DNA of 64,000 nucleotides from contig OZ316893.1 in NCBI GenBank assembly GCA_973895155.1, positions 6,844,963 through 6,908,962 on the forward strand. Reading direction: 5' to 3'. A model generated the notes under the pieces. The model worked only from the letters and a program-made list of their open reading frames with translations, made no database searches and was not told the DNA's origin. Each line of letters begins with the position of its first letter. Position 1 is the stretch's first letter. Made by a program: the position numbers and the translations under genes. Shown here in pieces: positions 11,425 through 63,200 of this stretch. Origin of the DNA: Marsupella aquatica. Taxonomy: Eukaryota > Plantae > Marchantiophyta.

Positions 11425-11435
11425 GCCTGCGCATG

Positions 11436-11579: not shown

Positions 11580-11580
11580 G

Positions 11581-30097: not shown

Positions 30098-30237
30098 GGA
30101 GTAGGAGTCCCTCATATTTTTGTATAAATCACAATTTTGTAATAAATGTGATCCTTGAACTAACTCATCTTGTCATGGTTGGTCGCAGTTGAAGTGATTG
30201 TTGTTTCCTGCTGCGTGGGGTGTGACTGTGAATCTAC

Positions 30238-31133: not shown

Positions 31134-34100
31134 ATGGCTCCAAGGTTGCCTCTTCACAACCCATTTAGGATTAGGCATCATGATTCTAAATTGTGGATGC
31201 GTGAACAAGCCCAGGCCGCCCAAGGTAGGAGTAGGAGGATGAGATGCCCATGCACATAGTGCCAAGGATTCAAGTCATTGAGTTTGAACACTGTGCACCT
31301 TCACCTGCTGCGGCATGAAAGGCACCCTCGGTGGAGGGTTTGGAATGTACCAGCAGAAGAAGACTCCTCTGATGAAGAGTGGAGAGCTGACTTTGTGGAT
31401 TCTAATACAGCTAGGCGTAGAGACTACGTAGAGCAGGACATAGACTGTGCAGAGGATGGTCTTGGGGTCCAACATGAGAACGTGGATGACCAAGATGGAG
31501 ATGCAGAGGCAGTCACTGAGACGGTGGGATGGATGTCCCAAGAATGGTTCAAGAGATTTTTGAAGACCTTGATGCTTTTTACGACATAGTGGAATCAGAA
31601 GAGGACAATGAACTGCAGCCACACATTGGAGACGGCCAAGCTGAACCTGACTTTGACATTGGGGAAGGTGCAGCAGAGAGGGAGTGGGTGTTTGGGGGCC
31701 CAAAACACATCAAAGAAGCTTGCATTCCTATCTACGAGGGGTCGAACTGCTCCAAGCTGGGTTTTGTCATGTTGTTGTTGAACATCTGTGGCAATCACAA
31801 TGTTCCCAATATATTTGTGACAGAGTTGTTGACCTTCCTGCGCCAAAATGTGTTACCATATGGTAATTCAATTCCAAAAAATATGTACGAGGCTAGGAAA
31901 TTGATGTCTAACCTTGGGCTGAACTATGTGTCTATTGACGCATGCCCTGATGGGTGTGTTCTCTTTCGCAAAGAGCATGCAGATAAATTGACATGCCCTC
32001 ATTGTGGTAAGCACAGGTACAAGAATGTAGGGAAATGTACACACCCTGCCAAGGTTCTTCGTCATTTTCCTCTCATTCCTAGACTACAACGTCTGTTTAG
32101 ATGCCCTGCCATTTCCAAGCTGATGACATGGACTCCTGATAACAAGAGCAGTGATGGCCTACAGCGTCACATTGGAGATTCCAACCATTGGAAATTTGTT
32201 GATGAGAGGTGGCCACAGTTTGCTGCAGAGAAGCGGAACTTTCGATTTGGTCTATCACTGGATGGAGTAAACCCATTTGGAGACAAAAACAACCGTTATT
32301 CATGTTGGCCGGTTACGCTGCTAAATTACAACCTTCCCCCATGGATGACTACAAAGAGGTTTTTTGTCATGATGGTGCTGTTAATCCCTGGACCAGCTTC
32401 TGTGACCGAGCAATTCATAGATATCATGTTGGCTCCAGCAGTGGAAGAGTGGAAGACTTTGTGGATAGAAGGGGTGTTAACCCATGATGTTCTGAAGGGG
32501 CTTCTTCGACCCAGCCCCTTTAGACTGCATGCAATTTGTTTGCTGGATATAGCAGATTACCCAGGCCATGGCATCATATCTGGACGAGTGACAAAGGGCT
32601 ATGTGGGGTGCACACCATGTGGGAAAAATGTGACAAGTGAGTGGTCGCATGCCCTGCACAGTATGAAATTTCAGGGGCATAGAAGGTATCTGCCTGTTGA
32701 TCATCCTTACAGGCACACACGGTCTCAAATTGCACACTTCAACAACAAAACAGAGCTTCGTGGCCCACCACAGAGGGTCACCAGAGAGCAAGTCCTGAGG
32801 TGGGCAGCCAGGAAGGCTAATTGGGACAAGAGAAGTGTCACTGATCGAGAAACTAAGGATCCAGTGGTGAAACACGGTGTGAAAAGACAGACCTTGATAG
32901 ACTTGGAGTTGGAGTACTAGAGGGTAATGTACTTAGCCTCCAGCCCCTGTATGATTGCAATTTAGATTGGAGCAATGGTGGATTGATGTTGGTTACAATC
33001 CTCCTATGTGGTTAATTAGTGTTTCTGTTGTTGAATTCTTTGCTTTGTGGAGTGCAGGAATTCGAGCCCAGCAAACACAATGTGGACGTCATGCACATTG
33101 AGAAAAATATTTGTGAGAGCTTGCTGAAGTTCTTGTCGGGTGAGAAAGATACAGGAGCAGTTCGAGCTGATATGCAACAGAAGGGGATTCGCCCTCACCT
33201 TTGGTTGAAGCCCCATGCAAGCAATCCCAATGTACTTCTCAAGTTCCAAGCTCCCTATGTGTGCACACAGGATGAATGGAAGACATTCTTGTATAGATTG
33301 AGCTGTTTGAAAGTGCCCTCTGGCTATGCTGGTGCCTTCAAGAAGCATATTACAAAGAATAAACTTGGCAGTATGAAAACACATGACTACCATGTGTTGA
33401 TGCAACACATTCTGCCCCTATGCCTCAGAGGTCTCATGCAAAAACCAGTCCGTAATGTCATTCTTTGACTGTGCAATGTATTTCGCCGTATATGTGTGAA
33501 AGTGTGGGATCCCCAAGGATTGGAGCAGTTGAAGCAGGATGTTGCTTATGTCCTCTGTGACTTGGAGATATACTTCCCCCTTGCTTTCTTTGATGTTATG
33601 ACTCATCTCCTAATCCATGTGGTAGAAGATCTAGGGCAGTCTGGGCCAGTCAGTACCAGATGGATGTACCCTATGGAGCGATACATGAAGTTGTTGAAAG
33701 GTCATGTGAGAACATACTACAAGCCAGAGGCTTCCATGGCATTGGGGTACATTAAGGATGAGACGTTGGGATTCCTAACAGAGTACATGGCTGGGTCTGG
33801 TGAAGCTATGACAAGAGTTTGGAAATCTGGTGAAGATGATGCAGTGAGTGGCAAGGTTGTTGAAGGTGTGGGACGTGCTGTTAAGCTGCCTGTTGCGATT
33901 CGAGACAAGGCTCATTCATATGTGTTGGCAAACACAGAGCCTATGCAACCATGGTAGAGGTGAGTGATTGAATTGACTTGCCTTTGTTGTGATGCTTCTT
34001 GTCTGTTCCAAGGGTGATCTTAGGTTGTCATGTGTTGTTTAGACCTAACTATGCCTGTACCTCATATTGCAGGGAATATGATATGCAAAAAGCTGCACAC

Positions 34101-34832
34101 TCTGGGCAGCAGGATCCCTTCCCACAGTTCGAGCAGTGGATTCGGGTGACAATTCGAGAGCATAGTAGACATCACCCAGATATGGAGAAGGATTTGTATC
34201 TTCTATCTATGCCACCACGATTGTCTATTCTGACCTACAAACAGATGAGAGCTTATGGAAATCATTATCGAGTGAGGGATGAGCAGGGTGACCATTGTGT
34301 ATCATATGATTGTGGTTTGATTTCTGTGTTTGAGCAGAGAACCTCTGAAGAACAGAGGGGGTGGATGAAGATGGGTTACGTGGGGGAGTTGACCGACATT
34401 TGGGTGTTGAATTATGGTAACACAAGTGTCCCAGTGATATTGATGAAGGGATCATGGGTGAAATCACAGTGGCAGAGACCAAGGGCCACCATGAAGCGTG
34501 ATCATGATGGGTTCTTGTTGGCCAATTTTAGGTCCAGAGTACCAGAATGGTCTGAGCCTTTTGTTTTCCCTAGCCAAGTTGAACAGGCTTTCTTTGCAGA
34601 TGTGGAGGAGTCCCATGGCTGGAGGGTGGTATGCCATAGCCAAGCACGGAACAGGCGGATGGATGGAAGTAAAGTAGAGTTCAGTTTGGATGACCATGCT
34701 GCATTCGAGCATCCTAGTTATGAGACTATACTTCCAACTCGGGCAGGGACTGACTACATCCCCTTAACATTGAGAGAGACATATGATGAACCTGGGCAAA
34801 TGGAATATGATGAGGTTGATGATTTGCAATAG
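31134..34832 (+). pseudogene. tnpD: CACTA TnpD-like transposase, copy B (transposase-associated, Transposase_21, DUF4218- and DUF4216-like segments; spliced; nonsense and frameshift lesions)
   Basis: RCPC..C, FGLSLDGVNPF, DVMHIEKNICE, MKTHDYHVLMQ, RWMYPMERYMK, EPFVFPSQVEQAFF. Introns at ~32925-33057 and ~33960-34072. TAG at 32918 replaces Trp. Confidence 0.95.
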
Positions 34833-35009
34833 GCAACAGCTGGCGATTGGCAAGTATGAGGTTGAGGATGACTACCTGCACAGAGTCACAGAACGGGAAT
34901 TGCTGCCTGGAATGATGTTTAGGATAGTTGGATATGCATGAAATTGATTGATACTTTGAAGTTAGTGTGCTGATTCTCCCTGTTTGGTTGTGGGTGTTGT
35001 GCAGAAGCT

Positions 35010-38000
35010 ATGGGGGAAGAGGGTGATGACATGGAGACAGACATGGGGCTTGGAGAGTGGGGTGAAGAGGAAAGATTGGATATGGATGGAGACCCAGATG
35101 CAGGGGGCTCACAAAAAAATGCACTTGTGCAGGATGCATAGGGCCCTCATCAAGTCCCAGGTAGGTGGGCAGCTAGAGAGAAATCACATAATCCATACCC
35201 TAGAAGGAGCCAGAGTTATTGGCAAGGGACGCCTGATAATTATGATGATGACTATGATGGAGCAGAAGATGCATGGGATGAATATGAACACCCAGAGCGT
35301 GGTAGAGACGGGTACAGAGGGCAATGGAAAGGTGAGGAGGATGATTGGACAAGTAAGTGCCTTGTGCTAGTGATTTTGTGATGGTAGTAGAGATTTAGCT
35401 CAATATGGACTTATCTGATGTGTAGCTAGGGCAAAGAGTTTATCTTACAGGTCCATGAGTGTGGCATGTACCTGTTGGTATGCAGACTCTGATTGGGACA
35501 ATCACGAAAACAACAAAGGCCATCCATGTTCAGATTGGAGGCAATCATTCACAGGCGGGAGAAACGGCCCTAATTCATCAAGACAAAGCAATAGGACAGG
35601 TGATCCAGAACCATCTATGCGCCAAGGGAGAGGTAACTTGGTCATTGCAGAATTGCTCTGAAGTCCAGTGTATATTTGGCAGCAGGATTTATGATTCATA
35701 CTTACCTAATGGATCCTGTAAATGTGCAGGGACTCCAGGGAGGTTTGGACAATGCAATCCAGGCCGTGGGGGGAGATCAGGCCGTGGAGGGACCCCAGGC
35801 CGTGGGGGGACACCAGGCCGTGGAGGGACACCTAGTAGCGCTTCAGGGAGTACCAAGGCAGGAGACAGTAACAAATTTGGTAAAGTAGAAGTGAATTCCG
35901 ATGGTTGGATAACTCCCACATGTGATGGTAAGAACCGTTGGCATTCTGACCTAAGAGGAGAAGTATTGCGTTGGTTAGATTTGAGCATTACAGAGTTTAG
36001 GAGTCAGAACAAAGCTGATTGGGCTGCTATCTGCAAGGACATTCTTGAACGGTGGGACTATGTTGGTAATGATGGTAAGGGCCCAGTTGAAGATTGCATA
36101 TCAGATTATGCAATGAGGATTTTGAAACAAGAGAGGCATAGGTTGAAAAGGATGTGGATAGACAATGGTTCTAACAGGAGAATGCCACCACCCCCATCAT
36201 TGGAATTGGATCAATGGACACGGTTAATCAAAGGATTCATGTCAGAGGCTGGACAGAGCAAAAGTGAACTGATGTCAAATGCTCGAGGCAAAGTGAAACA
36301 CATGTCACAGGCTGGGAGAGGAAGTTATGCTCCAGTGAAAGAACAATTGGTAAGGCAGTGACATGCCTGATAGTAAGCCTCAAACTTATCATCTTGCTAC
36401 CATTATTACATTTTCATTGACAATCAACACTTGGTTTCATTCATATGTATGTTGATGTGGACTGCAGAAGAAATTGACAGGTGAAGAACCATCAGCACAA
36501 GAAGTGAGAGAGGAGTTCATGAAACAAAGGAGTGAGGTGACAAGTGTGACTTCCAAACAGGTGATTATGTTGTAATTCTGTATGTTCTGTGACTATTTGC
36601 CCTTGAGCATCAGAAAGAATTGTAGTAGGAAGTAAGCAACCAGTTCTTGGGGACAATTATCTGAGATATGTAAGTTGTGTTATGACAGGGAACTGTTACA
36701 ACTCTCACAGAGATGTGTGAACGGTTGAAGTCATTAGAGTGTGGACTCCCTCGAGTGGAAAGTAAATTGGCTGATCGTTTGGATATTGTGGAGGCATCTG
36801 TAGCGAACCTTCTTGCATCAGTGGAATCTAATTTCAAGCTTGTGATTGAAAAATTGGGTGGTTCCCAACCAAACAATGAGGGCAACATTGTACAAAGTGT
36901 GCCCTTGTTAACAAAAAAGGGAATTGGCAAATCTGACACAGGTATGGAAATGACACCGGCCCATTGTTCATTGTGTCCTATGTTCAAATGTTAGAAGTAA
37001 GTTTTCATGAATTGAGTGAATGGTTTGAATGCAGGAAGAGTGGAGGCAGAGAAGGACCCTGTAATCAGTAAGTGAATGGTTTGAATGTAGGAAGAGTGGA
37101 GGCAGAGAAGGACCCTGTAATCAGTAAGCAGAATGGCAAAAAGGTTGCTGAGACAGGTAACCTGCTATGATCCAGTACATTACATTTGAAAAGTGCATGG
37201 AGTTTTGTGAAGCTTAAGCCGGTTGGAGGTAACCTTTTTTGTAAGAACTGGTTGGATCAACTGGGATCTGAAGTGACATCATGATTGATGTATCAGGTGA
37301 TTCAAAGAGCAATGAAAAAGATGTGCCCAGTGCCTCAGTGACCATAGCCAAGGAGGTATCAGGTAAGCTGATGCTTTAAATTCCTCTCCTACCATTGTTG
37401 AGAAACAATTCAGTGGTTAATAGATTGAACCTGAATATTGTGGTGTGTTTATTGATCAGCAGAAGCAGACATGGAGGATATGGCAATGGTAAAGAAGGGG
37501 AAGAAGGCTGTTCATAATGGTAAGGAGATAGTGACAACTTTGTGGTTGGTGACATGTACATGGCGCACTTGTGATGTCTGAGTGATTCACTTATGTTGGA
37601 CAATGCACTGAATTGTAGTTGATGCAGAGTTGACAGACTCTCAACCAAGTGGGAGCAGGGTGAAGCGACGTCAAAACTTGGGAGCAACATTGGATGCAAG
37701 TAAGATTGTAGATGCTTCAATTGAAGCAAGTACAATGTTGGCAGATACTGAGATGATATCGCAGGGAAATCTTGCTATACAATTGGAAGTGTCAAATATG
37801 GATGCAGATTCTTTGAAGAAGAGTGTATCCAATTCTCGATCACCAGCACAAAACACTCGTGCCAAAGTCATGACTCGCAACCAAGGTATGAATAATGTCA
37901 TGTATAAGCCACCCAGGAAAGCCAAGAAAAGCAGCCAGGGTAAGGTGGAGGTGATAGCCACAGCAGAGCTAGTCCATAATCTTCTATCATGGGAGGATGA

Positions 38001-38223
38001 CTCGCAGGTATGTGTGGGTACAGGCATTTTGCGACCGGATCATGCTAAATTCCATGGCAAAGTGGTCCCGGATGACCATGTAGTAGTGTTGTTGACTACA
38101 GTGATTGTATCTGATTGTAATTTGCCATTTCCGAATAGAGACGATGATCCACCTCAAGAAATAATTGCAGATGCAGTAGGATCTCTTGTGCTCTGGCCAT
38201 CAGAGTGTGTTAGTCTGCAGTGA
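35010..38223 (+). CDS. tnpA: CACTA TnpA-like multi-exon gene (Ptta/En/Spm-type domain and C-terminal Tnp1-type domain); exon structure approximate
   Basis: ERHRLKRMW...PP....DQWTRLI...KSELMSNARGK...GRGSY; C-terminal FHGKVVPDDHVVV...LPFP...IADAVGSLVLWP; PGRGGT repeats at ~35760-35835; several GT-AG introns. Confidence 0.75.
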
Positions 38224-41200
38224 CTGAATGCAAGTGTAGATAGAATCATGTGACATGTGTTACATTTTGACATTGCCTTGGAAAGATCCAAGAAATATCT
38301 GTACCAATTTTTCCATTTGGTAAAGAGGATGAAGGAGCCGTTGTGTGTGACATTGATATTTCTGAATTCTGTATATATGAAACAAGTGATTGATGTCAAA
38401 CTATGGCTCTATGGTGATTGTCTATGATACTTGAATCTGTTTTGTATCATTTCAGTATTAGTGTGTATGGTATAGACGAATGCTTTGTGACCTTTGTAGT
38501 CTATGATGTTTGAATCTGTGAATTCATATTAGTGTACATGGTATAGAAGATGGCTTTCTGAAAATTTGTGTGAGGTTCTAATGTTAACATGGTGAATGGT
38601 GACCTTATAGAGTGAGTTCATTCCAAGTACACAATAAAACATGAATGGAATGTGTTATTTGTGCACAAGAGTGAGTTCATTCCAAGTAGTATAGTGGGGT
38701 CTTCATCACTCATTTCCAGTTGACATGAAAGACTTGTACATACCCCACAAAGTGTCTACTTTAGTCGTTTTATAAACCCACAAAGTATACTTAAAGACTA
38801 CCCTCCATAACCTTTTGAGTCGTTCCCAACCACTCACCATCGCAGTCCATAAAAGACTGAAAAAGACTCACCAAACCTACCCACACAAAGACTACAATAG
38901 ACTGAAAATCCAGTCTATAAAACGACTTATAAACCAGTTCTATAAAGGACTCAGTTGATTATAGTAACAAAACATACGACTCATAGTCCTATAAAGGACT
39001 GGAGTCCTTCCCAGTCGTTTCCAAGTCCTATACGGTACTGAATAGTTGTTTTATGGGGTCTAAATACCCCCCGGTTTCTACTAGTGAGACAAGCCACAAT
39101 CTAGCATCTTAGCCAAACACAATCGTCCAGACAAAGCAAAACTCAGCTGGACAGAAGTCACTCGGATCCACAAAAAATTGAAGATTCACCTCCAAGCCGG
39201 AGGCCGATCACTTCAGTACAGCAGCTTTTGGACGGAACAAACTCTGCTCAACCCCACAGAAACACAAATGTTAAGGCTCCAAGTTAGAGCTCACAAACAG
39301 AAACTCAGATAAATAACATTCAAAATCTGTCCATGTTTGTGCAAAGTGTACATATTCATTCTTTTGGAATGAACACGTAATGCATACATCACCTAGACAC
39401 AGTCATTATAAATCATTGGGCAATTGGGGACCACTAAGCAGGTGTGTTCCTATTTCGAGGCTACAGGAAAGGATAGAGTGACACCAAACTCAAGAGTACA
39501 CCAAAAGAAAAACAGCAAGAACCAAAGTCAATCATGTGTGGATAAATTGCACATGGGAAGTTCCCCTGAAGAAGCATCAGTTGCTAACATTGTCACCCGA
39601 ACCACACCCAATTTATTACCTCAATGTCTTTAGCCTCAATATCCAATCCTCAGCCCCCTGGTGCTTCCGTGTTTGTTCTGAAAATTTCTGTGATGAAATA
39701 ATTATTCAATACATTCAATAGCAAAGAGAACTCAATCACAAAAGAAAAATAGTTAGTGTGAATGCTAATTTCTCAACCCTTAACTAAATTCAAACCACCA
39801 ATTCAAGTAGTAAATTTCAAAAACTTGCCTTTACATGAAGAGAAACCAATTGGCCATGCATGTTACTAAAGCAATAAACAAATAATTAGGCTCAACACAC
39901 AGGCAAACTACTCGAAACATGCTGCTGAGAAGTAGCATTTTTTGAATGTCAGATTATATGTAAGTGCCATGATCGTGCTCCTACGTTTCACAAGGAGGGC
40001 TGGCCCGAAAGGGAGAAGCAACAATGTGGAGTCTATACACGTAGCACAAATCCCAGTTTAGAAGGGTGGATGAAGTTCAGACAAGAGTTCAGAACTTGCC
40101 ATTTGAGATTGCCAATCTGAACTTCACATTCAGACAGGACTTCATCCAGTTTAGGAGTTCAGATAGGAGTTCAGACAATCTGAAGAGGACTTTGGACTTG
40201 AATGAGGGCCATATAGTTATCCTTGTGGCCTTCAACTGCGTGTCTCAAGCTGAATTTCACTTTCCAGTTTCAAGAGTTGTGAAGGTCTAGTTTTAGTAAC
40301 TTCCTCCTGACTCGACTTGGGAGCATTCTTTGTATTTGCTAGCTTGTATAGTAGTTAGCTTTGACTCCTGTCAGCTTAGTTGACGACCCTCTTGAGATAT
40401 TAACAATTAGAACAAACACAAGTTGTCAGACAGATTCCACCGGAGCAAAAAGTCCAAAATCAGGTGAAAGAAAACCTAAGGAAAGTCCATAAGAACAAAA
40501 GTAGGAAGACAGGCACACGGGCCACTAAGAAAAGTAAAGGATGCATGTGATTAGTGGGGAGGGATCTTAGCAAAAACAGGGGAAAGCAAGGGAACTTGCT
40601 GCTAAAATTAGCTGAACGATTGCACGGTTCCTATAAATTTAGTGGACCTTAAGGTCGTCTGTTCACCCCCCCACCCCACCGCCAGAGCACGGGGCACAAG
40701 GCATGTTCTCATACATGGAGGAGCAAAACAGTCATGTCAAGCAAGAAGTGTGGAGAGACCAATCAGTAAGCAAAAATATGGGAGAACATACATACATCAG
40801 CAGCAACAGGAAACAAGAAAGATGATTTCGGGTGGCATCTTAGGGTCGGGGACACCACTGCAACACCGGGACTTAGGATATGACTTGTTCTTAATCTGCT
40901 GATAGCATCCGGCAGACCGGCAACCCATGGCAAAAGGGCAGAGCAGCAATCCGCTAAAAAAATGGAACATTCAACAGGAAATGAAGAATAGGCACCCGAG
41001 CTCAGACTGTGTAGGAGTACAATACCAAGGCTCAATCCCTCTCTTCATTGGGTCAGCACCTATGTAGGTGCACGCTAAGGAGCAGTAGTGACTACGGCAT
41101 CTGGGAAGGCGCAACTCAACAACAGAAATTCAGAAGCACCACTTGGCCGCTTGGGACTGTCTGTGGTAGTCGAACAATATCATGGGTCTTGCCTGGCTGG

Positions 41201-43237: not shown

Positions 43238-43267
43238 GGTCTCAGAAAGGGTGGGTTTCTTCTAGTG
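43238..43267 (-). repeat. 5' terminal inverted repeat of CACTA-A
   Basis: GGTCTCAGAAAGGGTGGGTTTCTTCTAGTG, versus the copy-B end GGTCTAAATACCCCCCGGTTTCTACTAGTG. Confidence 0.85.
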
Positions 43268-45949
43268 AACCCTGTCACGTTCTTTGGCATCGACACTGCC
43301 AACAATAGAACCACTGCGTAGATATTCCAACACTCTCACATCATTGTGAATATCTTGTTGTCCAGAAGTTACCTCACCAACATCCACATCTGAAGACTCA
43401 TCATCCACTCCATCCAATGAGGTAGAGTCCACAGATCCACTGTATGCTGGCACCCAACAAAGAAAGGCAGATGCATGTCATCTTGGCACCATCTCCTTAT
43501 CTGACTCATCATGCCATCTAGCTCCAGTCTCATCCTGCTGACTAGTACATGGATTGCGGCTCCAAACAAACAAGTAGCAACGAAAGTGTGCAACAGCCCA
43601 CACTGCTGCCAAACACTCTCCCTCATAAGAGCTATACTTAGCCTCTCCTGAATTGTTTGATCTACTGGCATAAGCCACAACAAACTCATTCCCCTCATCA
43701 TCATTCTGAGTCAACACTGCTCCAAGTCCTACTCCACTCCAATCAGTGTGTAGCTGAAATGGTCTGCCTGAAATGGGTCTTCTCAAAATAGGGGATGATG
43801 CCAACCTTTGCTTCAACTCTTGAAAGGCATGCTCTTGGTCATCACCCCAAATCCATTCCTGATCCAACTTAGTGAGTATGGTTAAAGGTTTAGCAAGCTG
43901 GCTAAATCCTTTAACATACCTCCTGTAGTAGCTCGCCAATCCCAAGAATGCACAAACTCTACTCACATCAGTAGGACAAGGAATCTGTGTAATGGCCTCC
44001 ACTTTAGTCTGCTGTACACCCAATCCCCCTGGGTATATAGTGTGGCCCAAATACTCAATCTGGTCTTGGAAGAACTTACAATTGCTAGGATGGAGCTTCA
44101 ACCCATGTGCTCTCAATCTCTCCAACACAATCTATAAGTGCTGCTGATGTTCTTCCACAGTAGAAGAATAGACCAAAATATCATCAATATAACATCTGAC
44201 AAAATCCAAACCTGCAAGGATTCGATCCATGACTCTCTGGAACTCAACTGGTGCATTCTTCAACCTAAATGGTAAGAATAACCACTGATACAAACGATCT
44301 TTGCCATAAGAATCAATCCCCCAGAATGTTGTCTTGGACTTGTCAGCATGCCTAATTGGAAGCTGATGGTACCCTGCTCTCAGATCCAATGTGTAGTTTG
44401 CTATGAAGAACCAAAAACACACTTAAAGGTCTTCAAACTCGGTATTCGTTCTCGTAAGGAACAAGATGGGGTTGGTTTGATAGATTTAAACAATAATAAA
44501 GAACTAAAAATGTTTTCCACACATAGTAATCAAGTTTGATTACTTCACTAAGGTATTTTGAAGATTGCTCCACAGCGGTGAGTAGTTTTCAATGATAACT
44601 CAGCATCAGGTAACCATAAATTAATGAAAAGGAAATGATTAACAAAACACAAGAGAAAATAATCTCAAAGTACACTAAGGGAGTTTGGAGTAGACCAAGG
44701 TTACTCCTTAGACATAAGTCAAAATGAAAAGACTTAAGGATTCAAATCCATATTGCTTTTCAGATCTAAACTGCTTACTAGAGTACCTTTTAAAATGCCG
44801 TCAACATGTCTTATCCTTTCTTTCTAAGTGGTACTCGGATAAGATCTAAAAGGTAGCTACTTCAACATTTAGATGGTACTAAGCAACACAAAAGAAAAAT
44901 CCATCAATTTCAAATAAGACTTAAACTCAGTGAGTTAACTTCAAGAACTCAAGAGATTGTAATGAATCACCAAAAAGGAATCTATCATTACAACTCAAAA
45001 GATTTGCACAAAAGGAATTTTACTTCCTATGATTTATTCAAAGGATTAAACCACAAGAAGGAGGAAAGTCTTCTCCTGGTGTCAAGCTTGATCTCGAACT
45101 CTTAACATTCATGATCAACTGGCAGAACACCAAGGAAAGGCAAAAATTGCTAGACTTTACCATCAACTACACTAGTGATGGAGGGGTCTTATAGTAAAAA
45201 TCTACAGAGTAAGAGGTCATAGGGTCGAAGAGACATGCCTTTTCAAACTCCTCAAAAAATCAAAATAGCAATTCAGTAAGTGAAAAGCTGGGAAATGGCT
45301 AAGTAAGAACCCGTAAACCCTTAAAAGCGTAAAAGCGTAAAAACGTATAAGCGTAAAAGCATAAGGGCGTAATCCGGTTATAAAGTATACCCGTAGTTTA
45401 CACTTGGCATTTTAACAGCAACAGCAGGCTTAAACACTGTAAAAAGTTTAAATTTTTCAGTAATTTCAGGTTTTTGGTATTACCCAATACTCACACAATA
45501 AATTGAAAACCTTTGCATGCCCCACAGCATCAAAGATCTCCTCAGGTGTGGGCATGGCATATCTATCAGATTTTGTCTGGTGATTAATGGGTCTATAATC
45601 ACCACACATGCGCCTATCTGTGTAATTGCCATGCACATCCTTCTTGGCTGGCATCACTGTGGCAGATGCATACTCCCCATATGACATGTCCACCAATCCA
45701 GCCTCCAACAAATCTTGAGTACGTTCTGCTTTGAATCAGAGCTCTCTCCATGTCACTGTAACGGTATGGCCTATGAAAGATTGGTGCATCACTAGTCAAT
45801 TCAATCTGAATACCAGGACCCTTTAATGTCCCCAAATCCTTCATGCTAAATGCAAAACAATTCCAGTAACTCTTCAGGAATCGATGCATGCGACGTCTCT
45901 TCTCCCCTATCAACTTAGGGCCAAGCTGTGGTTCCCAACTCTCCACCAA
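43268..45949 (-). pseudogene. pol: Gypsy RT/RNase H, interrupted by a solo LTR
   Basis: RPYRYS, RMCGDYRPIN, LDLRAGYHQ, LPFRLKNAP, YIDDILVYS, FLGLASYYRRY, LHTDWSGVGLGAVL, YSSYEGECLA. An internal deletion removes part of RNase H. Confidence 0.93.
44392..45495. mobile_element. Solo LTR (~1.1 kb) inserted in the RT
   Basis: TG...CA termini with TSD CAATG/CAATA. Removing it restores in-frame KVFNSLDLRAGYHQ. Confidence 0.8.
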
Positions 45950-45994
45950 ATCCCTAATATCTCTTTGTAGGGTAGAAGAGATAGCCGATGATTG

Positions 45995-47188
45995 CTATTT
46001 AGCAGTAGATTGAGCAGTCCCTTCCTGCTCAACAATCTGTCCAGCCTTGGCCAATCCTGCCATAGGTCCGTGGACTATCTGCTCGCCCCCAGCTATGGTC
46101 AGTACTGTCTTAGTGGACGGCAAGCTCACCAAGGGACAATCAATAATTCTAGCAGAGCGCATCCGCAACTGTTCAGCTACTCCCAAGTTGATAATCCAAG
46201 TCAAACAATTCAGATCCATTGCTTGACCAAGAACCTGGCGCCACAAACCCTCTGACACAGAGGCAACTACAATGGTGCCAGTAAAAAATCCCATAGCACG
46301 CTCTCTCTCATCAGTAGTAGGTTCCACTAGCTGCTGGAGAGCTGTGTCCCACACAAGTCCAGGGGCACCTGCTCTGAATGCATATGAAGCAGAGTGGCTT
46401 ACAAGAGTGGGTAATGCACAACGTGGGCGCCCAACTGCATTGACCATTGCCAATGGAGGTCTATTAGGTTGGGTCACACCTGGTGCACGACGCCCTGGAT
46501 CCAAAATATCATCCACCACTAAGGTTGGTGAGCGTGGAATGTTGTCAAATGCGCGCTTCAGCACCTCACATGGAATCAAATTAGTCCACCACAAGCGTGG
46601 ACGATGTGCACGAGAACCCACATGTGTAGCATCCAATAACACAGTAGGTCCAATCCAAGACCTCACCTGGTGAACACTGGCAACAATCCGACTATGATCA
46701 TCACCTAACAATGGCACATTCTCCAAAATGTATGCTAGAGACTGTGTTTGATGTAGTTGGAGATGACGCAGCACCCGTAACATCTCCCAAAATAGTGCAG
46801 AGCGTGGATCATGAAGTCCATGCCCAACACCAACTCTAGATTGGCCTTGACATGGCCAACCAACAATCACCAAATCAATGGGGCCAACATGATGCAGATG
46901 ATCCACTCCCAGCAATGAAATATTAACAGGTAGTGCATGCTGATAACCACGAATAGCATCCACTAGCAGCAACTGTGGATATCTATCCATCAACATAGCC
47001 ACATGTCGCAATGAGACCCTGCGTGCTGTCTCATCTGTCTCCACATACAAATAACGACTCACAGGAATTCCTACCTGAAGAACAACAGCCAATCCAGTGC
47101 TAATCCCACCAAAAAGATCCAACAAACAAATACCCTCTGGTGGATACTGCCAAGCAATAGGAGTGGTATCCAATGGTGAAAGAGTCAC
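45995..47188 (-). CDS. DNMT3-like C5-cytosine DNA methyltransferase domain within the Gypsy Pol frame
   Basis: Motif I LLDLFGGI, II YVETD, IV DLVIVGWPCQG, V SALFWE, VI ILENV, VIII AHRPRLWWTNL, IX ERERAMGF, X RQVLGQAM, in non-permuted order. Confidence 0.93.
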   Translation of the reverse strand: MTLSPLDTTPIAWQYPPEGICLLDLFGGISTGLAVVLQVGIPVSRYLYVETDETARRVSLRHVAMLMDRYPQLLLVDAIRGYQHALPVNISLLGVDHLHHVGPIDLVIVGWPCQGQSRVGVGHGLHDPRSALFWEMLRVLRHLQLHQTQSLAYILENVPLLGDDHSRIVASVHQVRSWIGPTVLLDATHVGSRAHRPRLWWTNLIPCEVLKRAFDNIPRSPTLVVDDILDPGRRAPGVTQPNRPPLAMVNAVGRPRCALPTLVSHSASYAFRAGAPGLVWDTALQQLVEPTTDERERAMGFFTGTIVVASVSEGLWRQVLGQAMDLNCLTWIINLGVAEQLRMRSARIIDCPLVSLPSTKTVLTIAGGEQIVHGPMAGLAKAGQIVEQEGTAQSTAK

Positions 47189-47206
47189 AAGTCCATCTGC
47201 AAGAAA

Positions 47207-47914
47207 CTACTTTGCTTCTGACTGTGGTGTAAAAGCATGACGCCATGTATCATGTACCAATCGTACTGCTGCCTGTGGCAAGGCCTGTGCAGTGCCCCAC
47301 ACTGGTGGCACAACACTGCCAACAGGTAATCCTCGCATGATGTGCTCCTCATGAGACTCCTCCAATGGTGAAACATCTGCAGCATGCGTATTACCCTCAA
47401 TCAAATCATCAGGTCCAACAATTAGACCACTAAATGCTGCCAAAGACAATGGTGTGGATTTAGGACCTTCCACAGGTCCACTAAATCTCACTGGCAATTT
47501 GCTCAATCGAGCATCTCCTGACTGCCAATCAGGTCTATATGACACTGATTCCTCCCAAAAATCAAGAATAAATCCCATGGGGTAGAGCACTGTACATCCC
47601 ACCAACACATCATATGACTTTGCCTTAGTCAAAATAGCTCGTGCTTGTATCTGTGAGCTATCTATTGGATGACCTTCTTGAATCCTCAAATCAAGTGGTC
47701 TCCTGGTGATATGCTATGTAGATGTAGGTCCCCCCAATGAAGTCTGAATGGGAAAGGGACAATCCTCCAAATCCTCTGGACGCAATCCCAATCCACGTAT
47801 GGCAAACTTTCCCAATATCAAGGGTTGAGCACCACTATCTAGTAACACCCTCTCTGGCTGGTATACTGCTCCAGAAGGCCCAACTAATCGAAAGATACCA
47901 CTCCGATTATCCAA
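47207..47914 (-). pseudogene. Gypsy aspartic protease and linker
   Basis: VLLDSGAQPLILG catalytic motif and YDVLVG C-terminal motif; same frame as the MTase, separated by TAG codons. Confidence 0.8.
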
Positions 47915-48399
47915 TGATACAACACTAGGTTTAACCTAGTCCTCTCAAATGCAGGGCATGCTGGTAAATCCACCAACCTCACTGCTGCTGCATGACATGT
48001 CTCACTAGTAGCAGTAGGTGGCATGGTCTTCATTGCTTCAACATTGCAAGCTACTTCTACATGGGAAGCAACCACTGGAGTGTCCTCACAGAGTGTAGCT
48101 GCCAATCTAAACACTTATGCAGGACCAACTCCCAAGTTCAGCATGTCTGTCACTAAAAATAATGGGGTGCATACTATGGCAGTAGCCGCCCCCAACAGGG
48201 TACCTATCATCCCTACTACATCACTATCTGATTCTGCCAACTTACCCTCGTCAGGGTTTGTCCGAACCGGGTTCATAGAGGCAGTCTAAAATATCTCTAA
48301 CAATGTAAAAGATTGAGGAAGCTTTGTCTGCCGACGTGCATCCCCCCTCTGTGGATCTAACTCCACTACTGCTCCTCAGGGCTCAAGAGCTTTGGCTGC

Positions 48400-49900
48400 C
48401 CCACGTGTCAAAGCTGCTGATGCATCAATATGTGCAGTGCCACACATGAATCTCATGGTGGCAAGGTCTCCATCAGCTCCATAAGATGTGGAAGGACCAT
48501 GGGATGTGGAAGGTCCATAGGATGTAGATGCCCCATCACCAGAAGTAGGTCTCACCTAGGAACTAGCCATGGCAGCTAGCTGTTGCTCCAATTGAGCAAT
48601 CTTAGCATCCTTTGGATCTATGGTTACAGTAGGGGCAGCGTCACCTCCCTGTCTCCCTGCATGTGGCATGCCACGACCACGTCCACCACCTCTACCTCCT
48701 CCTCCTCTTCCCTGATCATGTGTATGGGATCCTCCCCTCCGTAACTCAGGGTGGAGTGAGAAACACCTATCCTTGGTGTGTCTAGGAGCTCCACAATGAT
48801 CATATTGTCGCTGATCAGATGCTGATGCTCCCCCTGATCCTCTATGATCTGGGCAATATCTTTGTGCATGATCCCCATCACAGGTCTAACATCCTGACTG
48901 CTGTCCAGCATAAGAGGGCACATGTCTCTAGCTGGTAGACTCTCGTGCAGTAGGCCTCTTCCTCTGGCTCTTTTGTGCAGTAGGTTGTGGTGTGGATGTA
49001 GATGCAGCCTTTGGTGCTTTCTTGGCAAATCCGGAAGTCACCACCTTCTCATTCACCATATTGAGCTCAATGCGCTCAGAAAGGGTAAAAACAACTGCTA
49101 ATGTGGGATCTGCATCCCTAAGTAGAGTGACATCTCTCACTCTACGTCGCAATTCTTTGTCCAAAATTGCATACCAAAACTGGACTGCCTGAGCCTCTAT
49201 CACTCCCTTGGTGACAATGATCAATCTGTGCATACAAGTGTATGCCTCACATAGACTCTCTCCAGTCTTGCGCTGGAACTCCTGGAGACTCTTCAACTTA
49301 TCAGTTCTCACACCCTGATAGTTCTGCTTCAGTACTCCAAAGAATTCCACCACAGGGTTAAATGCTGGCGCAACTCCAGTTCCTGTCACAATCACACCGG
49401 CAAGAGTAGCGGTGGATGCTGCTGGAGTGCTACTGGTGGATGGTATGCCACTCTGGCTAGTGCTGCTAGAAGAAGTAGCAGTTGTGGCAATGGGTTGGGC
49501 AGTTGCACTAGTGCCATAGGTGATGGACACGTAATTAGGCGACCAATGCTGCCTCCATGCCTCAATCTCAACCAAATGAGCCTTCCAAAACTCATGGTAG
49601 TCATCCATGGATGGTCCCTCCAAATGCTGAAATAATCCCTTCCATGCCATGAAAGGGGTAAACAACGTGGCGTTACGTAATGTCTGCATATCACACCACG
49701 TATCAAACTCCTAGATGAAGTCATCCAGATCAATTGTGCCAACTGCACCAGAGTATCATCGTGGGCCCTTTGTAGCCCCGTACATCTTTCCATATCCCAC
49801 AACAAAGGTGCAACCACCTGATGACGAGGAGAACTGGTCACTGAGTCCTCGTCGGAATCACTGTCTGAAGTTGCACTGCTGACTGCGACCAATGCTGCTG
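48400..49900 (-). pseudogene. gag: Gypsy gag (degenerate; boundaries approximate)
   Basis: FQRKTGESLCEAY gag motif; decayed zinc knuckle YDHCGAPRHTKDRC at ~48765-48806. Confidence 0.7.
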
Positions 49901-50662
49901 GCCGAAATTGCGCCCCACTCTGAGTGAAACCGGTCCGTCATCCATTGGGTAACCCAACAGCACCAGAAGAATCCGTGGTGTCCAACCTAACCTAATCTAT
50001 ATGCTAATCCTAAGGGCAATCTGTCCCTGTCAGCAACACAAGCACTCATCATGGTGTGTTGGGCATCACTCCAACATCACCAAGAGAAAAATACGTAGCA
50101 CAACTAGAATGTCCGGTGCAAACCCGGATCACTCCTATAGAATCAAGCGCCCACGCCAAACTAACATGGCGCATAAACAGGAAGCATATGTGGAGAGGAT
50201 CCAATCAACAAGAATAGATCCACAATAACTCTCCACATCAATAGTGATCATACATCAATCAAACAATGTTTATAATGTTCAATGTGGGGCCTTCATAATA
50301 GGCCTCTCAATGTTCAATGTCGTAGCTAAGGATCCATGCACCTTTGGTTCAATCCATGCATCTAGATGGATTCAAAAGCATCACAACCTGAAGGGAGCTT
50401 ATGATTTGGCCCAAAATGGCAATCTAAATAAACTAGAATGTGTATAAAATGCCTAAGTGTTCATTCCATTAACATCAAAGTGGAAAGGAGTGTGTGTACA
50501 CAAGAGCACTTAAGAACCACATAGTTAAGTGCATGGGGAAGGAATAGCTTTGAGATGGGTGACCTCTCACTTGTAGTTATGCACCAAAATGGCCGCTCCA
50601 AAATCAACAGCTTGCAACTACTCCTCATGTACCAGCGCTTGCTGGCCCGCCCGCTCCTACTG

Positions 50663-51930
50663 TGTCCCGAGTAACCACGAGTTGCCTCGAAGCCTCTAAA
50701 CGCCGAGATGAGCCAAAGAGTGAGCCCGCAACGCTTTGCTATGCCGAATCAAGTTTTGGCAACATTCAGATTTCCGTTTCTTGGTTTCCCTTCACAGAAC
50801 GCATCCGGATCAGCTGCGAACAGGCGACAGACAGTCTGCCGTGTCGACGCCCTGTTGAACGGATCCGTGAGTTGCAGCAACTTTGCGAGTCGTTTCCTTC
50901 ATGAAAAATGCAGCCCTTCCACAGAACTTCGGACGCAGCCCTTCCATAGAATCGGCAGCAGCTCGATTCAACATCTTTGACCCTTGTTTCTTTCACGGAA
51001 ACAATGATACCACCGCACGGGGCATCGGCAGATCCGTTCCTTCAGGAAAAGAGCTGTCGCTTCACCTGCGCCTTGCCAACCTCGTCCCATAGTAGCCGAC
51101 AATCAGATCTAAAACCTCACAGTAGCCAGCAATCAGATCTAAAGCCTCAAGGGATCAACTTCCACTGTTCGACATCTACTCAACATTCGCTTTCCTCCAC
51201 GAATCATCAATCAACCTCCAACTCAAAACCTATCACCAATCACAGATCTATAGCGTACAATCGCAGATCTATCAACATCCGCACTCAGCCAACCCGATCT
51301 ACTTCACAAAAATGCCGGCAGCAGCATACTGTCCGTCAAATGGAAGCACAAACTTCTCAATACCGGCGATCCACTCCATGATCCGAGGTACCACGGACCA
51401 AAACAACAGCTCCAATCGATTTGATCTACCACAAATCGTCAATGACAAACTTGGATTGAGCTTCTGTCCGCACAATAGAGTTTGAAGCTACTTATCTTTC
51501 AATGTAATCTCCATACAATCGGCACAACGATCCCGGTCAACAATACCCCATCGATCCCGCACCGATCCGATCACACACGTATGTCAAGCCAACGCACCTT
51601 GCACTACTAAAGGAATCCACGTTACACAAGCGGAGCTCACAGCCACCATAGCCACTCAAGCTCCTCTCTCTCCAAGGCTCAACATTGAAAGATGACCTTT
51701 CAATGCCTCACAAGTGAGAAGTACCCTCTCACACAAACCTAACAAAACCTTATCAGCTCATATAGCACACATACCAAACATACGGATCTAGATAGTACGA
51801 TACACTCTAACACTACCTAGAATGGTGTGACACTTCACAACTTCTGTGGCTCTAGACATGGTTGGACAAGTTGATTGATTGACTTCAAAGACAACTACTA
51901 TTTTACGAGATTAAGTTTGTCACGGAGACA
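50663..51930 (-). repeat. Putative 5' LTR of the MTase-bearing Gypsy
   Basis: Short inverted termini TGTCCCG...CGGAGACA upstream of gag. No canonical PBS recognised and no partner LTR in the window. Confidence 0.4.
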
Positions 51931-53492
51931 TGAAGCAGACTATGATAGTGTGATCTATCAATAAAGCAATGTGATCTTGATTCCTCTGATGATGATCCAA
52001 TAATAATGATGATCTTTTCCATATTTCCCTTCTGACAATCAACCTCAACAACAAATGATAGATTGTCTTGATGGGCCTAATTTTTTTCCGATTTGATAAT
52101 TCATGGACTGGGTGAGAACAAGCTAAATGGTTGGATCCAATGGGAAGGTGGACATGCCCATCCACTTTAGACGTCTGGTCTCTCTTTACAAGTGTACACT
52201 AATTGGTGTTCTGTTTAGGGATGAGGGAGGAGCCAATGCAGCACAGCCAAAGAAGGAGTGATTGTCACGAGGCAGGGGGCAATGTTCCTTCATTGTAGCA
52301 TAGCTATGACTAAGTATTTTTAAAATTGTTGTTAGTTTACTCTTTACATTCTTTCTACTATAACTGTTTTTGTTCGCCTTGCATCAAATATCAACAGTTG
52401 TCTCTAGTTTATATTGCAAACGTAGACATTCCTATTTGTGACAAAAATTGATAGTGTCATCGCAAGTGTTACCATAGAATTTAAAAGGCACTTACCATGG
52501 GGGTCACTAAATACAGCTTGTGCGGAATAGTCCAAATATGGTGCTCAATAACATAATTTACTTGTTAGAGTCAATTGATCAGACAAGACTTAGTAATTTC
52601 AGATCATCTACAGATATATCACTATAAGAAAGAGGATGGAACAAATGTAAGTTTTCCAAGCAAATGTACGGTCAATAATAATTCTAATTGTTTGAAAAAC
52701 ATGAGTAAAATACAATAACACTTGCAAAAGCAATGAAAACTACAATATTACACACTTGAGTAAAGCAAATAAAAACACTCATGTGTAATCACTAGTGATA
52801 CCCAACATATTCATAGACATTATATCCATGAGGGTTTATATATCCCAATGCTTATGGTTTATTGGAGAAGTATTTCATAATGTATTTATGTAATATTTGT
52901 GATAAAATTTCTATGTAATTTTACCAAATCATGCTTACATATATCCTAATGTTCATGGTTTATAGATCAGTAGGTTTCACCTAAACAAAGAGCCCCTACC
53001 TAAATAGAAAGCTCTTCAAAATAGAACTTAAAATTAGATAGGTACAAAATTAATTTACTTTGCTTTCAATCACATAAGAGACTTGTACATTCAACTTAAT
53101 GTATTTATCTTCACTTAGAGACAATATTGTATATCTTTTCACTTTAATGATGTGTTTTTTCTCCTTCATTATCTTATAATAATTGTTTCAATATTCATGA
53201 ATAGGATATAATAAGTGTTTCATAAACTAGTTACAAAATCAATGCTTTACGTACATAAGATAGACTAGACTTTATTATAAATAAGTTAAAATAGGTACGT
53301 GTGTCTTAAAAATGGATATATCTGGTTACCTGAACACATTGCTTGTATCATGTAGACATATTTTTATATTTTGCCTACCCTTATCTAACCATAGTGGAAG
53401 CTTTGCGCATTTCAGTCAACACCCCATTCTATCCCTCTGAATTTTTGGATGTTATATCTAATTACAGGAATTGTGAGAATAAAGCCCTCTTG

Positions 53493-55516: not shown

Positions 55517-58725
<3,209 letters not shown>

Positions 58726-60227: not shown

Positions 60228-63200
60228 TGTTAGATATTGCTCTAGTCTTGTGACTCATGAGCTAACTACAGTTAGTCTAACTCGGGTTAGGACTTAGCTA
60301 ATGTTAGCGGTAGTGCTGTTGTGTATATAACCAGGGCTGATGCCAGACCCTGGTGGAACTTAGGCTCATTGTTATGGAGCTAGTCGAGAGATAGGGAGAG
60401 CTTGTGCTGTGGATGCTTGGTATGGCCGGTCGGCCTAGAGTGCAATAAAGCTCTTGTGTGTTCCTGTGGATGTAGCCTCATGTGGAGGTGAACCACGTAT
60501 CTCTCTGTGTCGGCTATTGTGCGTTGGATGGTTCATGGGCTTGCAATTGTGAATGTCGTCTATGCTCAACAAGTGGTATCAGAGCATGCTTGGGAGGTGA
60601 TGAGGTTTTTTCGTGACAAGTTTTTCCAGCGTTCATTGTCGATGGTACATTCGGAGTTTCGTCGCATGAAACTCGAATGTGTGTGGCTGAGCGGATAGGT
60701 TAGTGAGAGGGCTTTCTAACGGTGGTTAGAACTCGCTGATCGGTATCCATGGTGCGGAGGAATCAAAGTTTGCGTCGTTCAGGGTTTATTCGTGTTCGAC
60801 GGTATTTCGGGGGAGAGACCTATGTTTGCGTTTTTCAACGGTGTGAGCTGTGTGGTGCGGGAGGGATCGCACATTATAGCTCAAGTTGAAGGTTGAAGCG
60901 AGCTGGTTGTTTTGGTAGCTGGATAGTTGCCGAGTTGTTACCGAGTGAGACGTGACGAGTGACGGAGGAGTTCAGGTTTTTTCACAAGCTATGGAGCTTG
61001 TTCCCATCTGAACCGGGTTTCTCTTCGTGACGTCCGACTCGGTGGAAGAAACGCAAAGTGCCATGGCTCAACGGTTTGATCGCGACGAAGCGGTCATTTT
61101 GAGTCCGGGATTGGCACTTGACGCGGAGTGAGTGTGACACGACGGAAAGTTTTTCCACTGCTGAGCTTGCAGACTGTGCCGGTGAAATCCAGAAACTTTA
61201 CCCGTCGGTGGTCGTCTTTTTCTTCATGTAAAACAGCGGCGATTTAGGTGTGTAACCAACACTTTTTCCCTTAAAATGACTTTTTTTTTCGGGTTACTTT
61301 AGGGCTAAAATTTTCAATGTGTATACACACGTAGTTACCCCCCTTAAGGCCCTGCCCCGACTTGGACGCCCTCCTTACGGCCTCATTCAGGCCGTGCCCC
61401 CGCGCCCCTATTCATGCTTTGTGCACCGGCAGGCTGCTGCCGCCGCTGACTCCCGTGTTTTCCCCCGACCTCCTTTAAACATCCCCGGCTGGTATGCCGC
61501 CGCCTGGGTACGAGCCCGGCCATACGCCCCCTTACAAATCCCTGGCCCCATACGGGGTGTATTTTGTTTTTTAAGGGACTTAAGGGCCTATTTTAAGCCG
61601 TTTTCTCTTCCTCTTGTTTTCCCTTCGTGTCGGGACTTGCCGGCCTCCGTTTTAACCGCTTGGACAGGAGGAACGGCCCCCTGTGAGACCTGTCGGACTG
61701 TGCGGGAATATTCCCGAAAAACATAGAGTTGTTTTTTGGCCGTCTGACAAAGATTCCATCTACCGAACGATAACATTTTTGGTTCTTTTTCGGCGAGGAC
61801 GTTGCCACTGGAGTTAGCAACGCGGCGCGCCAATCATATCGCGATTCCGACGATGGGTTGTACTTGGTTTTTTGGTTATTCTCCGAGGTGGTCAAAACGG
61901 GGGAGTTTCCCAAGGTTTTACCCACCCCGACCAAAATTTGAATAACTTTTCCGTCGAATTTTGATTTTGATTTTGGCTTTCAGTATTGGACTCCTAGCTT
62001 TGTGTGCTACGCGGCAGTGTTGAGTTTTGAGTTTTGTGAGAAGTTTTGAAAAAAGACGTTTTTTTGTGATTGTTTCATATGAGTGATTCAGAGGATACTG
62101 GAAGAATTAGCGTCGGTGGAGCTTCAGGATCGCGACGGTCAAATGGAGAGTCTGAGGAGGAGCTGCTACCGTTTGAGGAGGAACTTGTAACACCGGTATG
62201 ATCACCGGTGCGGCGTGCAGTGGAGGAAGTTGTACTACTACTAGAGCTGTCGGTAGTAGGGAAGAAGAGGGAGATGGCTAGATTTGGAGGAGTGAAGTTT
62301 GAGGTGGAGAAGTACGATGGTTGTACTGATTACTTGTTGTGGGAGAAGCAAGTGAAGGGTGTTCTTTGGACCATGGGCTTAGCTCATCTGCTTTCATCGC
62401 GAGAGCAGTATGATGGAGAGGAGGAGATTTCTATGAGGCAGTGGAGACAGGAGCAGGTGATTGCTGTCAATGCAGTGATGCTATATCTCAAGCCGCACAT
62501 CATCAAGCAGCTGGATGATTATGCGGATTGTGTGTCACTGTTCAAGGCTCTAAGAGAGAAGTACTATTGGGAAGATGCATCAGACTGGTTGTACAAGAAG
62601 TCTCTCTTGATGAGCCTCAGGCTCAAAGAAGGGAGCAAGATGCAGGATCACCTGGATGAGTTTGACAGTCTAGCAGTGAATCTGTCAAATCTGGGAAAAG
62701 GAGTTGAAGATAAGGATAAGGCCTTGCTTCTGCTAAGCTCCTTACCGCCGCCATATCAGGGCTTGAAATAGGTGCTCTTGTATAGAGATCTGAAGTCCAT
62801 TTCGTATAATGAGGTGGTGAGCTCCTTGCTATCTGATGATGCTCAGAAGAAATTGGGTCATTCACAGACAACATCTTCTTCTGGCATTGCGCTGAACATG
62901 AACCGTGGGAGAGCAGCACAACGCACGAATGGGCAGAACAGGTTTAGATCTACATCACGGGGGAGATCTAAATCCAAAGGGAAATCGCAAGAGAGGAAGC
63001 CTCTTGCATGTTGGAATTGTGGCAAGCCTGGTCACATGAAAAGGGATTGTCGAGTAAAGGTCCCTACTGCATCTGCTAACACGGCATCAAGCTCGCATGA
63101 GGTAGATTTACTCGATGATGATGATATATTGTGATGTCAAGGTTATGCTCTCAACGTAGTGTCAAATCCAGGTAGTGATGACTGGATTCTAGATAGTGCA

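Follow-up and report, generated by a model that had tools for sequence, protein, structure and literature searches.

A DNMT3-like domain within a Ty3/gypsy element

The stretch of DNA analysed here, referred to as the window, comprises 64,000 nucleotides of the liverwort Marsupella aquatica (assembly GCA_973895155.1, contig OZ316893.1, positions 6,844,963 to 6,908,962 of the forward strand). Its minus strand carries a dead and truncated copy of a Ty3/gypsy retrotransposon, along which Gag, a zinc-knuckle region, protease, a DNA methyltransferase (DNMT) domain, reverse transcriptase (RT) and RNase H follow one another (Table 1). An earlier reading of the bare sequence, hereafter the original prediction, had described this element as carrying a DNMT3-like cytosine methyltransferase built into Pol between protease and RT.

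The frame encoding the methyltransferase is open as predicted, but measures 403 codons from stop to stop and not 397. The HMMER check proposed for it gave a match to PF00145 above the curated Pfam cut-off (E 1.7e-9), and this was the sole Pfam family on the frame. In the usual numbering of C5 methyltransferase motifs, motifs I (47116), IV (PC, 46861-46844), VI (ENV, 46726), VIII (RxR, 46609-46586), IX (46309) and X (46228) are all present in unpermuted order. The description of the domain as intact holds for these motifs but not for the entire S-adenosylmethionine (SAM) pocket, since motif III is altered in the window copy. Family-wide, the catalytic and SAM motifs of a C5 methyltransferase are in place (motif III is kept in 18 of 20 proteins of the bryophyte clade described below), and it is in motif III that the window copy deviates.

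With regard to the type of enzyme, a sequence search of the PDB with the window domain returned DNMT3A chains as the best matches (E 3.6e-12), HaeIII at 2e-4 and DRM2 at 0.06. A structure model built with an alignment of 77 sequences reached a predicted local distance difference test score (pLDDT) of 92.6 and a predicted template modelling score (pTM) of 0.92, and its top Foldseek matches were DNMT3A and DNMT3B (E 2.9e-19, TM 0.70/0.84); the alignment-free fold of the domain reached a pLDDT of 32.6 only. A DRM identity was rejected on the linear motif order and the E-values of DRM2 and DNMT3A, in agreement with what had been predicted, and a stand-alone host plant DNMT3 was rejected because the frame carries no DUF3444 and the domain is embedded in a retroelement. 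Judged by the PF00145 match, the modelled fold and the catalytic residues, the window domain is a genuine DNMT3-like methyltransferase domain, with methyl transfer as its predicted activity. Translation also confirmed that the protease motif LLDSGAQ and the start of RT lie in the same frame as the domain.

A conserved stop codon between the methyltransferase and RT

The in-frame TAG codons around the domain had been read as mutations. This proved correct for the two upstream of it (47716-47714 and 47209-47207, in the protease and spacer), which are private to the window copy, close relatives being open from protease into DNMT across both sites, but not for the third, directly after the DNMT frame (45997-45995). 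The alignment of this site drew on 66 loci, 47 of which had a downstream anchor and gave 48 rows together with the window (the other 19 lacked the anchor). All 48 rows have a stop at one and the same codon after DNMT (37 TAG and 11 TAA), followed directly by CAA in 47, one row having lost the CAA, and the highest share of stops in any of the 1174 other codon columns was 0.375. Within the window's own family, no variant with a frequency of at least 5% was seen at the stop in 297 contigs (172, 97, 27 and 1 in four runs), and the corresponding place in the distant locus L045 is likewise occupied by a stop. These data indicate that the stop is fixed in the family and does not result from decay. 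It follows from the conserved stop that DNMT closes a Gag-protease-DNMT frame; the predicted position between protease and RT thus stands, but the domain is not simply part of Pol.

In the window the stop reads UAG CAA UCA, which corresponds to the type I read-through motif UAG-CAR-YYA of tobamoviruses, pomoviruses and Providence virus (PMC3542737). The exact motif stands between two conserved coding parts in four of the 48 rows (the window, L013, L040 and L041). Of 460 decay stops, 15 are followed by CAR and none by CAR-YYA. In all five copies tested, the reading frame is open before and after the stop, the two alternative frames contain 7-15 stops within 250 nt, and neither a shared splice donor nor a shared start codon was found near the stop.

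The two closest proteins (79% identity) terminate exactly at the stop residue, and full-length frames of the Marchantia and Calypogeia type finish 94-100 residues past motif X. Among 49 long relatives with at least 42% identity, 39 end before RT, a figure that includes a gene model skipping ahead to integrase and a damaged protein from a continuous cluster; the remaining 10 extend further, four being genome gene models without the stop stretch and six lying outside the clade. The proteins ending before RT form a single branch with the bryophyte clade in a quick tree (98 in the Shimodaira-Hasegawa-like approximate likelihood ratio test, SH-aLRT), and DNMT is continuous with RT only in more distant relatives (P0157, P0158/P0200, P0235, P0237 and P0438). 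The arrangement of Gypsy-Dnmt3, with DNMT in the Pol open reading frame (ORF) and continuous with RT, is thus not found here, where the conserved stop precedes RT.

Each of the four lineages has an RNA stem predicted at the same position 3' of the stop, with folding z-scores of -2.36 in the window and -0.5 to -0.9 in four relatives. Pairing of the stem arms gave z-scores of -1.3 to -3.5 against synonymous shuffles, the arms having been picked after the folds were seen; being significant in one of five folds and post hoc, the stem is a hint and suggestive only. From the sequence data as a whole, we consider it likely that the stop is used for read-through.

Structure and decay of the window copy

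The original prediction placed the element at 43268-51930. Its lower limit was borne out, as homology to relatives stops at 43268-43265, and contigs of run X10 diverge from the window at 43267, with different letters onward. The 5' end is probably 51832 and not 51930, on thin evidence: summed contig depth is high at 51350-52017 and falls beyond, a single X10 contig runs past 51832 with letters resembling the end of the relatives' repeat B, and there is a weak alignment to the A repeats of L001, L043, L047 and L052. Within the 64 kb, neither integrase, PHD finger nor 3' repeats of the element were found, nor a pair of long terminal repeats (LTRs) or a target duplication for this copy.

The gag of the window is 63% identical over 246 residues to that of Marchantia Mp_4g09160, and PF03732 matched weakly in the relative P0127. 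The zinc-knuckle region shows knuckle-like Cys/His spacing in translation and no Pfam match in the window copy. The protease likewise gave none there; Asp_protease_2 was found in the relatives P0139, P0151 and P0154. RVT_1 (E 1.9e-14) and RT_RNaseH_2 (E 1.5e-31) both matched in the window copy. Decay is evident from many stops in gag, further stops in protease and RT, and frame changes near 49788, 47932 and 45720. The insertion inside RT had no terminal repeats by eye. In runs X1 and X2 the summed contig depth, which is not a copy number, was hundreds-fold higher over the element than past 52018, and the family is thus multi-copy.

Table 1. Features of the retrotransposon copy in the window, in the 5' to 3' direction of the element
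Feature	Position	Strand	Basis or remark
5' terminal repeat A1 (inferred)	51490..51832	-	TGTC start at 51832; inner end approximate, from the relatives' 339-bp A repeat
gag, broken (stops; frame change near 49788)	48931..49940	-	upstream limit approximate
Gag zinc-knuckle / RGG region	48559..48885	-	36-45% identity to the matching region of Marchantia proteins
Aspartic protease and spacer	47210..47914	-	LLDSGAQ at 47845; 68% identity to P0196, stop read as X
DNMT3-like C5 methyltransferase frame and C-terminal tail of ORF1	45998..47206	-	domain about 47140-46160; PF00145, DNMT3A/B matches, model
Family-conserved in-frame stop TAG, then CAA TCA; candidate programmed read-through site	45989..45997	-	48/48 rows
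Possible RNA stem immediately 3' of the stop (a hint only)	45880..45988	-	folding z-scores
RT start, frame change near 45720	45501..45994	-	74-89% identity in parts to Marchantia and Sphagnum gene models
AT-rich insertion inside RT, 1109 bp, private to the window copy	44392..45500	.	skipped by contigs of X1, X2 and X10 (3/4 runs)
Remainder of RT (YIDD at 44191, one stop), RNase H, linker	43268..44391	-	ends before integrase
CACTA-type terminal repeat truncating the element	43255..43267	-	one letter off the terminal repeat of the CACTA copy at 22039-39086

Relatives, hosts and layouts

The relatives found comprised 198 of near length (120 among the matches listed), 75 longer ones and 94 long polyproteins, and 212 clusters at 50% identity passed E 1e-30. 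The hosts known by name are Marchantia, Riccia, Calypogeia, Sphagnum and Closterium, together with the chlorophytes Scenedesmus, Haematococcus, Chlamydomonas eustigma and Hariotina; among the relatives by name there was no protein of a vascular plant, Physcomitrium or Klebsormidium, which is a weak absence.

Two positions of the domain recur in the 160 proteins of at least 700 residues. DNMT precedes RT in 25 and follows protease, with no RT, in 41, while it lies between RNase H and integrase in 78 and before integrase without RT in 15, one protein being unassigned. Named streptophytes have the DNMT-before-RT layout and named chlorophytes the layout with DNMT between RNase H and integrase. The order is Gag-protease-DNMT-RT-RNase H-integrase-PHD in 66 metagenome loci, as far as each extends, and the position of DNMT is the same in all bryophyte-type relatives, including Marchantia, Calypogeia and Sphagnum, which upholds the prediction of a polyprotein domain and not a later or one-off insertion. 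The order of a Ty3/gypsy element is recognisable as Gag-protease-RT-RNase H in the window, with integrase following RNase H in the relatives.

Both ends of the element are present in four of the 66 loci (L043, L047, L048 and L052), which represent three distinct insertions, L047 and L048 sharing flanks. These complete relatives measure 9.1-9.2 kb and have 4-bp target duplications and TG..CA ends (one letter is changed in L043). Their 5' end is formed by repeat A (339 bp) and their 3' end by B-A-B, where B measures 113 bp; they thus have split direct repeats of the form A1...B1-A2-B2 and not two flanking LTRs. No TGG-type primer site was found by eye after A1, and a purine-rich run stands just before B1. 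This repeat layout is DIRS-like in the relatives; in the window family just one contig hints at a B-A junction.

The Marchantia members include Mp4g09160, Mp8g17980, Mp5g06330, Mp5g06860, MpVg00370 and MpVg00540. Four proteins (P0447, P0448, P0449 and P0452) bear Mp_Vg names, which denote the Marchantia V sex chromosome, and two of them are full-length open Gag-protease-DNMT frames of 1281 residues. In chlorophyte-type relatives (P0161-P0187, P0241-P0297) the Pro before the catalytic Cys is replaced by Glu in 22 of 85 and the Phe of motif I by Cys in 37 of 85. Two further proteins join a related DNMT domain to other parts, P0414 to a PCIF1_WW match below the cut-off and P0379 to a copia-type gag.

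Selection on the domain and its descent

The ratio of nonsynonymous to synonymous substitution rates (dN/dS) was determined for the window copy against the main group of loci, using the 49 of 58 well-covered rows that were left after removal of near-duplicates. The median between lineages was 0.17 for DNMT (0.17-0.18; 44 pairs, dS 1.9), and 0.12 for RT, 0.14 for gag, 0.18 for RNase H and 0.26 for the spacer. In line with the dN/dS check that had been proposed against neutral evolution, these values indicate that the DNMT domain is under purifying selection between lineages. The catalytic residues are almost invariant, with Cys in 140, Glu in 143 and the two Arg in 139 and 143 of 143 proteins; among the loci, most of which are decayed, the DNMT is stop-free in only 5 of 49, and all four catalytic residues are present in 19 of 45.

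In the DNMT tree, for which phage methyltransferases (24-31% identical) served as outgroup, the window falls in a bryophyte clade, nested among liverwort and moss sequences (FastTree support 1.0). A quick tree of 44 picked rows gave SH-aLRT values of 100 for the bryophyte clade and 99 for the clade with DNMT between RNase H and integrase. In the tree of RT and RNase H (106 rows), the window groups with L045, L013/L040, Marchantia and the main loci (1.0), and Closterium is adjacent (0.75). Identity over the domain is 33-41% to chlorophyte retrotransposon domains and about 23% to human DNMT3A, and no DUF3444, PWWP or ADD was found in the 45 scanned of 52 DNMT-only representatives. The bacterial label of P0029 was set aside, as this protein sits inside the retrotransposon clade and comes from a 2.4-kb contig.

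The original prediction had left the choice between a related and an independent lineage. The trees support the former, a DNMT lineage related to the algal Gypsy-DNMT elements, and not a fresh capture. The DNMT and RT trees fit one old capture followed by descent with the element. A likely course would be a single DNMT3 capture in the green-plant ancestor of the elements, after which the domain may have changed its place in the polyprotein of the chlorophyte branch; the tree gives no direction for this move because its deep branches are weak.

Surroundings of the element

The rest of the window is rich in other transposons. Two CACTA copies lie in opposite directions at about 6700-18800 (minus strand) and 22039-39086 (plus strand), with Transposase_21, DUF4218 and DUF4216; the latter has 14-bp terminal repeats and a 3-bp target duplication. 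Both contain extra BRCT and NSD-type PHD frames as cargo. A young intact copia element is found inside a CACTA copy at 11580-17365 (plus strand), with 165-bp repeats that are 100% identical and one open frame of 1548 codons. Another gypsy element (3-5253, plus strand) shows RNase H and integrase, then a 1092-codon open frame without Pfam match. An intron-bearing enolase gene at 55880-58722 (plus strand) has a Ser-rich N-terminal extension resembling a plastid transit peptide and is preceded by short tandem repeats at 55518-55788. A 14-bp satellite, a fragment of ribosomal protein L18a and copia fragments occupy 20586-21112, 21509-21859 and 62202-63663, respectively. The window elements are CpG-poor and not CHG-poor, like L013, and L001 and L052 are poor in both, which points to hosts differing in methylation pattern.

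Proposed working of the element and alternatives

We consider it moderately probable, or a little less than that, that the conserved stop is rarely read through, that Gag-protease-DNMT is made in capsid-like dose and that the cDNA is methylated before integration. Most ribosomes would halt at the UAG to yield Gag-protease-DNMT, and a few would read through and add RT-RNase H-integrase-PHD. As every Gag chain would carry protease and methyltransferase, the enzyme would enter the particle in capsid-like numbers, and the protease could cut it free inside. The methyltransferase would then act on the cDNA of its own element prior to integration, and new insertions would thereby be marked from the outset, and the PHD finger of the integrase might steer insertion by chromatin state. 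Only tentatively do we extend this to the whole family, namely that a green-plant-wide clade of split-repeat Ty3/gypsy elements may have kept one DNMT3 since before land plants and that its bryophyte branch may have altered translation in such a way that enzyme at Gag dose methylates new cDNA inside the particle.

Several observations weigh against these proposals. It should be noted that 43 of the 48 rows deviate from CAR-YYA at the last letter, which is the commonest context in the main family, and that the rows are not independent, coming mostly from one family and few assemblies and amounting to about four lineages at the DNA level. Among dead main-group copies the dN/dS of DNMT (0.59) exceeds those of RNase H (0.38) and RT (0.29), dS between lineages is close to saturation, and the trees took in no host DNMT3 and no Klebsormidium sequence. 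The CpG depletion of the element (0.29) is that of the DNMT-less CACTA neighbour, so composition gives no sign of self-methylation, and counts of CpG and CHG did not separate self-methylation from host methylation. Moreover, the Klebsormidium domain was inactive in yeast, a result that its authors regarded as inconclusive (PMC5890265).

This inactivity would also suit an alternative with the same anatomy and leaky stop, in which the methyltransferase either targets chromosomal DNA outside the particle or binds nucleic acid (DNA or RNA) and leaves the cDNA unmethylated; one such role would be to brake the element's own or rival copies. Host-directed and brake roles are listed as open by the same authors (PMC5890265), and synthesis at Gag level would leave surplus enzyme. 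Genomic copies decay at CG (0.19), CHG (0.21) and CHH (0.06) alike, versus 0.02 at A/T, which is explicable by host enzymes. We nevertheless hold such a role to be unlikely, as the fusion to Gag places the domain at the site of cDNA synthesis and the near-invariant catalytic residues argue against a purely binding function. It is distinctly unlikely that the stop, though real and conserved, is bypassed by splicing or re-initiation. In Ogre the corresponding frames are parted by a partly spliced intron (PMC6317226), whereas here there is no spacer but a single stop in an otherwise open frame, and candidate donors lie at differing places (-132; -243 and -38; -198; none). The main family does have an ATG three codons past the stop, but lineages differ in where the first in-frame ATG falls (codon 3, 5, 36 or 48); likewise, the gene models P0125, P0130, P0132 and P0155 leave out the stop stretch, but the stretches omitted differ, as would be expected of gene callers at stops. 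That the domain is a passenger, inserted once or recently captured from a host DNMT3 and now neutral, is very improbable. The decay of the window copy and most loci would be in keeping with it, but the identical position in all bryophyte-type relatives refutes a one-off insertion, and the dN/dS of 0.17 and the bryophyte-containing clade in both the RT and DNMT trees speak against neutrality and recent capture. So do the greater identity to chlorophyte retrotransposon domains than to human DNMT3A and the lack of DUF3444, PWWP and ADD, host DNMT3s of non-flowering streptophytes being known to carry DUF3444 (PMC6453930).

Relation to known systems

Gypsy-Dnmt3 is already known from Klebsormidium: KnitGypsy-Dnmt3 of Klebsormidium nitens is a Ty3/gypsy element with a Dnmt3 domain placed in the Pol ORF (de Mendoza et al. 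2018, PMC5890265), and a DIRS-like repeat layout is stated in the legend to Fig. 4c of that paper. It shares with the present family an intronless unpermuted Dnmt3 domain, the catalytic residues, purifying selection and the DIRS-like repeats (here in relatives), and because the layout is stated there, the split-repeat relatives very probably represent elements of that kind. It differs in that here the host is a land plant, abundance is high and the domain ends a Gag-protease frame before a stop. The 2018 survey included Physcomitrella (9 DNMT genes) and Selaginella (10), and not Marchantia or Sphagnum. Later papers say 'streptophytes' for such elements, and their trees may include land plants; the available text of a plant LTR survey mentions neither PHD nor methyltransferase. 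The literature search yielded no description of elements like these from bryophytes or chlorophytes, and none of the conserved stop; supplements, Repbase and most subscription papers were outside its scope.

The question why transposons carry their own silencing enzyme has stood since 2018, as the known cases come from algae that are difficult to work with. The present family occurs abundantly in mosses and liverworts, and naturally open Gag-protease-DNMT frames exist in Marchantia. As Marchantia is a genetic model for which methylation mutants are available, activity and read-through are directly testable. The conserved stop predicts a dose, in that the methyltransferase would be produced like a structural protein, unlike RT. 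Should the tentative family-wide proposal be true, land-plant retrotransposition would include self-methylation as a core step with a set dose, and open first frames would be annotated as unknown Marchantia genes. Element frames also inflate DNMT counts and yield false spliced gene models in bryophyte annotations.

Other retrotransposon-borne C5 methyltransferases are SymbioDIRS-Dnmt3 and SymbioLINE-Dnmt (PMC5890265) and the EpiLTRs of Cymbomonas and Euglena (bioRxiv 10.64898/2026.05.21.726589). They belong to other retrotransposon classes or carry, at the end of pol, a domain related to DNMT4, and no read-through stop is described for them in the available text. The related Dnmt3 domains of Symbiodinium retrotransposons methylate CG in yeast, SymbioDIRS-Dnmt3 doing so de novo (PMC5890265). 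Bryophyte host DNMT3 (PpDNMT3a/b, MpDNMT3b = Mp5g09290; PMC6453930, bioRxiv 10.1101/2021.02.12.428880) is alike in its DNMT3-type domain with linear motifs, but contains DUF3444, whereas the window domain lacks it and lies within a polyprotein; the Marchantia relatives are other genes.

With regard to the stop, the type I read-through signal (PMC3542737) has the same stop and six-letter context as the window, L013, L040 and L041. Here it divides Gag-protease-DNMT from RT in a Ty3/gypsy element. Read-through is also known for the env-like part of the copia element SIRE1. Ogre (PMC6317226) resembles the present elements in having GAG-PROT in frame one and RT-RH-INT in frame two, but its spacer of about 274 bp is spliced as an intron and it has no DNMT, whereas here a single codon divides the frames. 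Compared with these systems, the novelty lies in the spread across green plants, in the two placements of the domain and, most of all, in a putatively leaky stop that would set the enzyme at Gag dose.

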